Part shown: positions 1 to 3,000 of the stretch, piece by piece
Layout: the number at the start of each line of letters is the position of its first letter
How positions within the stretch are numbered: position 1 is the first letter of the stretch
IMG/VR virus record: IMGVR_UViG_2703718836_000012
Location: 1 to 35,817 of that record
Origin: a virus
Lineage: Duplodnaviria > Heunggongvirae > Uroviricota > Caudoviricetes
Strand: one strand, 5' to 3'
Length of the DNA stretch: 35,817 bases
Position numbers: made by a program

Positions 1-3000
1 ATGAAATACAAGCCGGATCAATACATCATCTCTGATAGTTACGGAGTTTATTACGTCAGGATCTCAATTCCTATATGGCTTCGTAATGCATTTGGTGGAA
101 GAAAAACTCTCGTCCGTAGTCTGAACACTTCCGATCTTCGTGTGGCACGTAGGAAGCGTGATGTTATAGCAGACGAGTTTCACCACATCAGGCAAATTGC
201 AGAGCCACCAAAACCGGACAGCCTGCAGGACACAATCAGCTATCTAAAGAGCGTTGCTAAGTACGCAAAAGCTGCCCCGAAAGCATCAGCGCCAATTATC
301 TCCCAATGCCCCTCTCTGAATAAGATGTTGGAGATTTACCTCACGCATAACGCTGATCGCCTGAAAATTGGAACATTAAGCAAGACCAGGAAAGCCGTAG
401 AACTGTTTCTGAATTACCTGCGAAAGAAGGATGTGGAACTAAACGATATCAACCGTACCACCGTTACAGGCTGGCTTGATCATCTCCGAGAAACAAAGGC
501 AGTCCAAACAGTGGCTAACTATCTTTCTGCAATGGCAAACATTCTCGATCTTGCCTCTTCCCGATACCAGGACGCCCCACAGCTGGAAAGTAACGTATTC
601 AGAGGGCATAAACTCAACACAGCGCAGAGCCGCCAGAGTTACGAGGCATTCACGGACGAAGAAATTACGAAGCTCATTAGCACGTTTAACAAGTTAGGAG
701 AGGACGAATTAAGGGATTTAAGCGCCATAGCCGCTTATAGCGGAATGCGCATCAATGAAATAGCCAGTTTGAAATCTGACAATATCCGTGAAGTTGAGGG
801 GGTGTTATGTTTCGATGTATTGGAAGGAAAGACAGCTAACGCTTCCAGGCTAATCCCATGCCATAGTGCGATTAAAACAATGGTCCTGGAACGCTGCCAG
901 AAGCCGCACAACGGCTTTTTATTTTACCGTGCAAGTGTGACCAAGAGAGAGGACGGCAAGCGCTCCTCATGGCACGTAAACCGCTTTGGACGGCTTAAAC
1001 GCGATATTCTCCCAGGGCAAGAAAACAAGGTGTTTCACTCGTACCGCCATGCCGTGATCAGTAAGCTAAACGCCGCCGGAGTGGATGAATCTCGTATTGC
1101 CTTGCTCGCGGGCCACTCATTTGGAGAAACTGAATCTTTCAAGACGTATTCGAAATCCGTTCCTGAGCGAATAGTGAAGGAACTAAAAGAATATATCGAA
1201 TTAATCAAATATTAAAATACCTTAAATGTGAGGGGGAATCCCCCTCTATTTTATTTATACCATACACTTTGCATATATTGCGATGTTTCAGATGAAATAT
1301 TATACCAATATGCATAATTATTTGTTGCATCTACAACTATCAATTTATCATCACTATCCATCGCTTTATGAACTATTTGCGCTGCCTGTTCAGAATTGTA
1401 ATGTGAATTAACATACCAATTTGATTCTGTAACTTTGACTGCTACGCCCAATGATTTAATAGCTTCGTAAACTGCTGGATAGTTTTTAGTTTTGATCAAG
1501 TCATAGGTTACAAAAAGATTGTTAGCCATTTTATTCTCTCCAGAGATTCAAAAGAATAAGCGCCGCTATAGGCGCTTTGAGATGTTTTTATTTCTTAGCT
1601 TTCTTGGTAGGGATTTTGATAGTTTCAGTTACCGTAGTGTCAGGATGTCTTTTAGCTTCAATGGGCTTAACAAACTGACCAGTTATCGCAGAACGAACTA
1701 CTGTTTTCTTAGCCATAAAACACCTCATCTTGGAGATAAAGAGTGAACTGCTTACCCTTTTAAGAATAAGGGACAAACGAAGCGGCGTCAAAGAAAAAAC
1801 ACCACATATACACATCATTTACAAAACAAGCGCAATATGTGGTATCTCCATGCGATTTACATCACAATCACCCCCCTGTGCTGCTCTGACCGCTCAAGGC
1901 TGACAAGGTGAGCGACTGTGTAAAACTGGCTTGTGAGGCTCTCGCCTGGAAATCAATGTAATCGCTCAGCCTTGAGCTATCGCTGGCGATAGTTAGCGGA
2001 ACAGACGCTTCAAGATTGAGATTGAATACAGGTGCAAGATTGTACGCTGGCGCACTATTGGTGCTGGTTAGGGATGATATAGCAGAATCACGAAGCGCTC
2101 CCCCTTTCAGAGAATCACCATTCAGGCCGTATTGTTCTACCGCTGTCCCTGTAGGCTGATCATCTATCCCTAACCAACCTTTAACGGCATGACCTACACT
2201 ACGGCTGTCCCACCCTGTCTTGTCCTGCACCCAATCGGCAGCACTGTTGGCACTTCCTGTAACAGCACCATCATACAAACTCTGTGCCGCTGGCTTATCG
2301 CTACCAGTGAACCATTGAGGGAAACGTTCTTTCAGCCCTGCATTGATATCACTCACAACACTGGAAATCTCACCCACAAACCCAGTGATTTCTTTCGAGA
2401 GATTGCCTAAGCCCTCTCCAAGCATTCCCGCCGCTTCGGTGATAATTTTGGTTTTCCTTACCAGATCGTCGCCCCCATCGGCAAAGCCTTTCATCCAGCC
2501 TGTAAACAACTGATTGTCTATTCCATTCATCAGATTACCCATAGCAACACTCAAATCGCCATACTCATAAACCTGCTTGATCATTTCGTCGTTCAGCGTC
2601 TGACCGGACTCAATGAGAGTTCTTAGCGTCTTGTTATACTCTGCACCGTTGTTCATGAACATATCGGTGTAGTGCATCAGGTCATCACCTAAACTCTCAA
2701 TCAGCGTACCAATCTGAGCCTGTGACATACCACGGCGTTGCCCTTCATTCACCGTAGCTTGAACAAAATCGAGTGGTGAATCTTGGAACTTGGAAATCTG
2801 ATCCTTACTCCATCCAAATTTGTTCATTATCGACGTAATGCCACCATCCCCACCCTTCCATTCGCCATTCTTCATTTGAGCATCGTTAACAGTCATGGCG
2901 AGGCGTTCACGCACATCTTTCATGTTATCGACGGCTTTTGAGGTATTAGCTGAATCAACACCGTGTTGCTGTCCCCAGGCCACCATCGTTTTTATGGCGT

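Follow-up and report, generated by a model that had tools for sequence, protein, structure and literature searches.

A moron-like cassette beside an island integrase encodes a predicted stand-alone member of the Cas2/VapD superfamily

The stretch of DNA analysed here, 35,817 nucleotides (nt) of a virus of the class Caudoviricetes (IMG/VR record IMGVR_UViG_2703718836_000012, positions 1 to 35,817; hereafter the window), carries beside its integrase gene a cassette of two small genes encoding proteins of 42 and 92 amino acids (aa). A moron is a self-contained accessory unit in a phage genome, and with a probability of about 0.5 we read window positions 1216–1867 as such a unit, transcribed from the minus strand, with the last late gene on one side and on the other the integrase of a small capsid-encoding integrative island of Escherichia coli, and encoding a 92-aa protein of the Cas2/VapD superfamily that would act in the lysogen in mobile-element conflict. 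Judged by profile comparisons and a structural model, the 92-aa protein is a stand-alone member of this superfamily, nearest to the subfamily of BPSL1038 from Burkholderia pseudomallei, and the two genes together probably represent accessory cargo and not a toxin-antitoxin pair. The stand-alone relatives of Cas2 and VapD, for which a common origin as small nucleases or toxins is assumed, have barely been studied.

An initial annotation had singled out a two-gene cassette rich in adenine and thymine next to the integrase, bracketed by hairpins and bordered by a bidirectional terminator at the integrase 3′ end, and this description is borne out. Across positions 1251–1818 the guanine-plus-cytosine (GC) content is 34.9%, against 46–50% in the flanks; gene by gene, the cassette has 0.312 in its 92-aa gene and 0.380 in its 42-aa gene, with 0.463 for the integrase, 0.490 for the 623-aa gene upstream of the cassette and 0.502 for the capsid gene. 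Both cassette genes are real and lie on the minus strand, and three hairpins punctuate the cassette, one before, one between and one after its genes (Table 1); terminator-like sites number five, against 0.9 ± 1.0 in shuffled sequences. The hairpin at 1795–1849 is likely the intrinsic terminator of the upstream late operon. The 623-aa gene had been described as tape-measure-like; it matches phrog_16051, which bears the name tape measure, and RefSeq calls it TolA.

The TTGACG and TAnnCT pattern of the predicted promoter is retained in the AR_0128 (Escherichia coli), Kosakonia and Klebsiella copies of the cassette, which likewise possess a GGGGG/CCCCC hairpin equivalent to that at 1230–1246. Terminator, promoter, two genes and terminator, together with the foreign base composition, thus define an independent unit by anatomy. 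A predicted promoter and terminators of its own, a place between conserved genes and an atypical composition are hallmarks of morons that the cassette displays, and the earlier suggestion of moron-type cargo next to the integrase gains from them. A scan of positions 1150–1950 against Rfam yields chance-level matches only.

The hairpin that separates the two genes belongs to the leader of the 92-aa gene. Its stem is nearly invariant and its loops vary, and a TGGAGA motif is kept in all enterobacterial modules. This leader of ~50 nt, comprising the GC hairpin, the T-run and TGGAGA, can be aligned behind three unrelated kinds of upstream gene, which places the joint between modules upstream of the hairpin. 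As far as these alignments reach, the terminator-like leader moves with the 92-aa gene, whatever gene precedes it.

The 92-aa protein matches phrog_1090, a phage family of unknown function, over its full length (expectation value (E) 8.2e-22; protein residues 3–90, profile positions 2–88 of 90). It has no Pfam or NCBIfam family, and the Pfam CRISPR_Cas2 profile is absent from its matches at E ≤ 1. The PADLOC model Cas2_II matches it weakly (E 2.8e-4); when 46 family members were scanned singly, PADLOC returned 23 weak matches, 22 of them to Cas2 models, and a Pfam scan of family members found DUF3884 in 17 and CRISPR_Cas2 in nine, all below threshold (best CRISPR_Cas2 E 0.0057). An AlphaFold2 model computed from a 46-sequence alignment (predicted local distance difference test score 94) adopts a ferredoxin-like fold in the order strand 1 (residues 3–10), helix 1, strands 2 and 3, helix 2, strands 4 and 5, and a C-terminal helix 3 (residues 80–90), with no extra helices. 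Foldseek ranks BPSL1038 first (E 0.0098), followed by Campylobacter jejuni VapD (Protein Data Bank (PDB) 9kan, E 0.03) and many Cas2 chains, with no match of the model reaching E 0.001. A profile of the broader family matches BPSL1038 weakly over its full length (hmmsearch E 0.099; hhalign 75.5% probability, P 2.4e-5). Structure prediction, the Foldseek ranking, the recurrent weak Cas2 matches and the hhalign comparison together uphold, at the level of the superfamily, the initial proposal of a Cas2/VapD-like protein.

Strand 1 ends in Y9, which is invariant among 46 sequences from several phyla, and D10, which is at least 90% conserved among them; both residues are invariant in an eight-sequence alignment that includes relatives from Gram-positive phages. 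The end of strand 1 is the position that the catalytic aspartate occupies in Cas2, VapD and BPSL1038 (PMC10491678). Conservation of Y9, D10, K32, S36 and D61 suggests a dimer with paired Asp residues that would bind or cut nucleic acid. The 92-aa gene evolves under purifying selection, with a ratio of nonsynonymous to synonymous substitution rates (dN/dS) of ~0.1. Residues M1, A2, N3 and N4 are invariant across phyla as well; so conserved a start as the MANNL of this family is unusual, and BPSL1038 begins with MAGNL.

BPSL1038 (PDB 7vxr) has been described as representing a Cas2/VapD nuclease subfamily and is the nearest characterised protein (PMC10491678). It shares with the modelled 92-aa protein the topology strand-helix-strand-strand-helix-strand-helix, whose long C-terminal helix is absent from Cas2 (PMC10491678), the similar N-terminus, an S-x-W-Y-(V/L)-N core (TESNWYVN in the 92-aa protein, SSTAWYLN in BPSL1038) and its situation as an orphan gene of ~90 aa without CRISPR surroundings. 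The two differ in that their identity is only about 17–19%, that the D11(X20)SST motif of BPSL1038 is not kept (in the 92-aa family D10 is followed after ~23–25 residues by T/H-x-S36), and that the 92-aa family is acidic and largely phage- or island-borne. Double-stranded DNase activity in vitro is a feature of BPSL1038, whereas the 92-aa family is known here from sequence and model. We accordingly assign the 92-aa protein to a subfamily of its own, associated with phages, within the Cas2/VapD superfamily. To our knowledge, BPSL1038 is the sole stand-alone relative of Cas2 and VapD with a structure, and a functional study of the 92-aa family was not found in the literature searched (Cas2-like prophage genes, DUF3884, P2-EC53 and phage Cas2 homologues).

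With Cas2 itself the family has in common the ferredoxin-like fold, the conserved Asp at the end of strand 1 and the profile matches described above, but no cas genes occur in the window neighbourhood of the cassette, nor among the 25 commonest of the 106 Pfam families represented by 129 neighbours, and the 92-aa model ends in a helix where Cas2 ends in a Cas1-docking strand (PMC10491678). Given the lack of cas1 or a CRISPR array, the missing C-terminal docking strand and the sub-threshold scores, the 92-aa protein is not Cas2 proper. VapD (Helicobacter pylori VapD; C. jejuni VapD-VapW, PDB 9kan) resembles it in fold superfamily, small size, carriage on mobile elements and the presence of a preceding small gene. 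VapD differs, however, in possessing extra helices in two loops, which are missing in BPSL1038 (PMC10491678) and in the 92-aa model, and the 92-aa family has no conserved antitoxin partner, its upstream gene being the 42-aa gene, a DUF3606 gene, a DUF2188 gene or none.

The distribution of the family was traced through 107 homologues found by protein search, 45 loci in genomes and 78 viral contigs from IMG/VR. It extends through Enterobacterales, Alpha-, Beta-, Gamma- and Deltaproteobacteria, Campylobacterota, Verrucomicrobiota and Acidobacteriota, and the homologues are GC-poorer than their flanks in 42 of 43 loci (mean difference 10 points). Phages of Enterococcus (gp05 of the phiFL phages, annotated as ‘sinR-like’) and of Staphylococcus pseudintermedius (annotated as ‘Cas2’), one Clostridium phage and one Mannheimia phage harbour remote but clear relatives (29–37% identity) in which the invariant residues Y, D, Y, K, S, W and D are the same; each of these relatives is a lone gene beside or among oppositely oriented genes. 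The downstream gene is convergent in 53 of the 78 IMG/VR contigs, and both neighbours are opposite in 23. Outside Enterobacterales the gene is solitary, none of the 106 neighbour Pfam families being seen more than twice, and most of these loci have no relative of the window integrase within 4 kilobases (kb), by a single-query phmmer search that could miss distant recombinases.

Enterobacterial settings are more varied in their company. In the window's island type, the E. coli, Klebsiella and Kosakonia copies have the 92-aa gene behind the 42-aa gene and convergent with a DUF6538-type integrase, and a Citrobacter contig holds the same pair and ends before any integrase. The pair in Serratia converges on a different, 555-aa integrase-like gene, and that in Pectobacterium has no integrase detected within 4 kb. 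A second island type places a 92-aa homologue after a DUF3606 gene, again convergent on a DUF6538-type integrase, and in Pantoea anthophila a DUF2188 gene precedes the homologue. Counted by locus, DUF3606 genes lie upstream at L002, L008, L051–L058 and L072–L092 and DUF2188 genes at L013, L019 and L044; the enterobacterial cases of both kinds show the same leader of GC hairpin and T-run between the two genes. Tiny genes of the DUF3606, DUF2188 and 92-aa types seem to travel in loose company.

In P2-like phages, a 92-aa homologue accompanies a DUF3606 gene in the Z-region, with the tail-fibre and sheath genes on either side. The Z/fun locus of P2 is known as a site of morons, and the homologue in P2-EC53 and R18C, 68.5% identical to the window protein, resembles the window gene in being self-contained, with its own leader hairpin and a following hairpin. 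The Z-region differs in that a DUF3606 gene, not a 42-aa gene, lies upstream, and in that a ~230-aa gene annotated as a putative lysogenic conversion protein is also in the locus. In the 2228-bp GenBank record AJ512682 of the P2-EC53 Z-region (locus L001), the homologue is unannotated at 254–529 on the minus strand, just within the annotated left inverted repeat. Elsewhere a small, conserved and convergent open reading frame (ORF) with the core ...ILHYVAKxLGxLxHVxGLPYG... either overlaps the homologue at its 3′ end or directly adjoins it there (L011, L031, L035, L038, L040, L042 and L049; opposite strand, about +225 to +500 from the homologue start; the nameable loci mostly alphaproteobacterial). 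We considered this ORF as a hidden partner of the 92-aa gene and rejected it, as it is present in only 7 of ~40 non-enterobacterial loci.

The second cassette gene has a history of its own. A mechanical ORF call returns 76 aa (1588–1818), which accounts for the end coordinate of 1818 in the initial annotation, whereas the conserved version has 42 aa from an ATG at 1716. The upstream extension is interrupted in relatives, and compared with the Klebsiella copy the 42 codons have dS 0.83 and dN 0.09; the 42-aa protein is thus the real product. This protein (charge +7.6) consists of the motif RSAITGxFV..A.(K/R)HPxTTVxE, present once, and a Lys-rich tail behind it. An exhaustive profile search assembles 894 clusters of the motif family, many with two tandem copies, and Pfam, NCBIfam and PADLOC yield no match to the 42-aa protein or its two-repeat relatives. 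The 42-aa gene is an independent small gene from a very large unnamed motif family, not a dedicated antitoxin.

Comparison of two E. coli variants of the island demonstrates that the 92-aa gene has been exchanged. Nucleotide identity between them is 93% in the integrase, 98% in the 42-aa gene, 94% in the promoter region and 96% in the capsid gene, but only 63–69% in the 92-aa gene. With the low dN/dS of this gene, such divergence indicates an old allele imported by recombination and not rapid evolution. The 3′ part of the 623-aa gene (window 1900–2400), with about 50–60% identity between the E. coli variants where the capsid and 65-aa genes have 96–99%, is a second exchanged segment that adjoins the cassette. 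The island is rare, being present in 13 of 5,426 complete E. coli genomes. All 13 contain the cassette, as do the Klebsiella, Kosakonia and Citrobacter copies of the island. The possibility raised at the outset, that the cassette is a conserved core gene of this kind of element, is borne out in part: occurrence in every sampled island copy makes the cassette fixed rather than variable cargo. The occurrence of the family in unrelated elements and away from integrases, its foreign composition and its allele exchange nevertheless argue that it is accessory and does not belong to the integration or morphogenesis machinery.

The initial annotation also entertained a small toxin-antitoxin function, which in its most specific form would be a VapXD-like type II pair, with the 42-aa protein as antitoxin and the 92-aa protein as an endoribonuclease toxin serving to stabilise the island or to abort infection by phages. 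VapD is indeed among the best Foldseek matches, and the arrangement is a suitable one: a small gene first, about 58 nt, then a larger gene, their products of opposite charge (isoelectric point (pI) 10.5 versus 5.5) and the internal hairpin expected to yield more of the upstream product, with the pair in fixed order and spacing in six enterobacterial genera. Yet in most lineages members of the 92-aa family stand alone, and none of the 129 neighbours examined outside Enterobacterales represents a recurrent family; its upstream small gene is elsewhere an unrelated one (DUF3606 or DUF2188); and the motif family of the 42-aa protein reaches far beyond the sampled range of the 92-aa family. Within the cassette itself the two genes do not overlap, a terminator-like hairpin parts them, and a recombination breakpoint falls between them, with 98% identity on one side and 63–69% on the other across the two E. 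coli islands. The two genes have consequently not diverged together, and as a co-adapted pair is not expected to uncouple in this way, the allele swap counts against pairing. On neighbour conservation, allele coupling and spacing we judge the toxin-antitoxin pair quite unlikely, and this part of the initial annotation is not supported. Carriage in all 13 E. coli island copies and in those of Klebsiella, Kosakonia and Citrobacter, and convergence on DUF6538-type integrases in a second island type and on an integrase-like gene in Serratia, would also agree with a role in the life cycle of the island, as an integrase accessory, directionality factor or regulator always found beside the integrase. 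Such a role is distinctly improbable, given that members in the Z-region of P2-like phages and in Gram-positive phages, there in the early regions, are distant from any integrase, that in most non-enterobacterial loci the single-query search detected no relative of the window integrase within 4 kb, that the acidic, arginine-free 92-aa protein is unlike known excisionases, and that its allele was swapped while the integrase remained 93% identical.

Two further explanations accept the fold and dispute the function. The 92-aa protein could lack enzymatic activity and serve in regulation or ligand binding, its ferredoxin fold being ACT-like or similar; it would hitch-hike with stress-type small genes (DUF3606, DUF2188 and the 42-aa motif) and resemble Cas2 through shared ancestry or fold only. 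Its acidic character, its repeated adjacency to other tiny hydrophilic genes and its occurrence among housekeeping genes outside Enterobacterales fit this explanation, which we nevertheless consider unlikely: the sequence signals are specific to Cas2 and BPSL1038 and not to ACT, the Asp at the catalytic position of Cas2 and VapD is conserved, and the family is strongly prophage-associated. It is very improbable indeed that the protein is a Cas2 mimic which blocks CRISPR adaptation by poisoning the Cas1-Cas2 complex or binding prespacers. Anti-CRISPRs are typically small and acidic, and the Cas2-like fold, weak Cas2 profile matches and carriage by phages and islands are in keeping with mimicry, but the C-terminus is a helix and not the Cas1-docking beta-strand of Cas2, BPSL1038, its nearest relative, belongs to a species that reportedly lacks CRISPR-Cas (PMC10491678), and the family spans many phyla with no cas genes among its 25 commonest neighbour Pfam families.

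The reading we prefer, an accessory unit whose Cas2/VapD-type product acts in mobile-element conflict, has to contend with several findings that weigh against it. All Cas2 profile matches fall under the curated thresholds, and besides the weak Cas2 models no PADLOC defence model matches the 92-aa protein. The family is acidic (median pI 5.65), which is unusual for a nuclease or nucleic-acid binder, and the window copy has no arginine; both properties contribute to our low confidence in the functional part of the reading. Of the two Arg clamps proposed for BPSL1038, one lacks a basic counterpart: R10 is replaced by the invariant Y9, and R30 by K32. The window allele moreover lacks the nearly invariant W30, reading GVAVKV where the family has G-x-W-A-K-V (window 1439–1444, residues 29–30); the same W30-less allele is common to the window, Kosakonia and Citrobacter and is still under purifying selection (dN 0.014, dS 0.142 versus Kosakonia). 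No compensatory covariation was found in the leader hairpin, because the stem is nearly invariant. Finally, the presence and absence among close elements that characterises morons is not seen here: the cassette is in every sampled island member, unlike a freely exchanged defence gene, and only the 92-aa allele differs.

If the cassette nonetheless works as its anatomy suggests, the terminator at 1795–1849 would end the upstream operon and the sigma-70-like promoter at 1791–1763 would start transcription of the cassette, with the 42-aa gene first. The leader hairpin and T-run at 1577–1550 would probably stop most transcripts by attenuation, leaving read-through to supply the 92-aa product at a low level, and the bidirectional terminator at 1230–1246 would close the unit. 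The 92-aa protein may then form a dimer, pair its D10 residues, bind or cut nucleic acid, and act in the lysogen in exclusion, defence or counter-defence during conflicts between mobile elements. A broader version is unlikely: the 92-aa family as a whole may be an unrecognised, widespread single-gene effector of temperate phages and islands from Proteobacteria to Firmicutes, namely a minimal Cas2/VapD-like dimer that is expressed in the lysogen, kept low by its own leader and directed at nucleic acid against competing mobile elements.

Table 1. Genes and signals in and around the cassette (window coordinates).
Feature	Position	Strand	Details
Tyrosine integrase, DUF6538 N-terminal domain and Phage_integrase domain	1..1215	+	PF00589 E 4.6e-11; PF20172 E 6.9e-11; RefSeq WP_033801639.1; convergent with cassette
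GC-rich hairpin GAGGGGGA/TCCCCCTC with A/T runs on both sides; bidirectional terminator-like site	1230..1246	.	Between 92-aa gene and convergent integrase
92-aa acidic protein, pI 5.5, phrog_1090	1251..1529	-	RefSeq WP_033801635.1
Ribosome-binding site GGAGAG, 6 nt upstream of 92-aa gene ATG	1536..1541	-	Sequence motif
Leader hairpin AAGCGCC-TATAGC-GGCGCTT (1558–1577), then T-rich run; terminator- or attenuator-like	1550..1577	-	Between the two cassette genes
42-aa basic protein, pI 10.5	1588..1716	-	RefSeq WP_257394210.1
Predicted sigma-70-type promoter: -35 TTGACG, 17-nt spacer, -10 TATTCT	1763..1791	-	Consensus match only
Long hairpin, then U-run, directly after 623-aa gene stop codon	1795..1849	-	-27.4 kcal/mol, z -4.4
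623-aa gene upstream of cassette	1868..3739	-	phrog_16051 (tape measure) E 4e-97; RefSeq name TolA

The element that houses the cassette (window 1–11565) is not a full prophage. In XYEH3934, ~13 kb extend from the integrase to tRNA-Thr; besides the integrase, the cassette and the 623-aa gene, they contain a capsid gene of the lambda-E type, some small ORFs and a DEAD/DEAH helicase. The annotation of this stretch includes no terminase, portal or tail genes, and the element therefore has the appearance of a phage satellite or a degraded island. A second, truncated tyrosine recombinase (193 aa, phrog_216; window 10579–11160) stands between the island and a separate myovirus-type prophage segment (window 13600–35817), which comprises a GtrB-like O-antigen conversion gene (13977–14894), a 611-aa tape measure gene (24791–26626), and baseplate, sheath, large terminase and endolysin genes.

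These results tie phrog_1090, an uncharacterised phage family, to the Cas2/VapD superfamily and reveal that its members, with exchangeable alleles, turn up repeatedly as lone genes in temperate phages of Gram-negative and Gram-positive hosts. Even if the 92-aa protein has no role in mobile-element conflict, the assignment corrects the ‘sinR-like’ and ‘Cas2’ annotations of its relatives and removes a false toxin-antitoxin call. Should the family prove to be a widespread effector, it would constitute a functional relative, standing alone, of Cas2, the CRISPR adaptation protein. A role in defence, exclusion or counter-defence, if true, would place it among the smallest such systems and make it a living example of Cas2-like proteins outside CRISPR.

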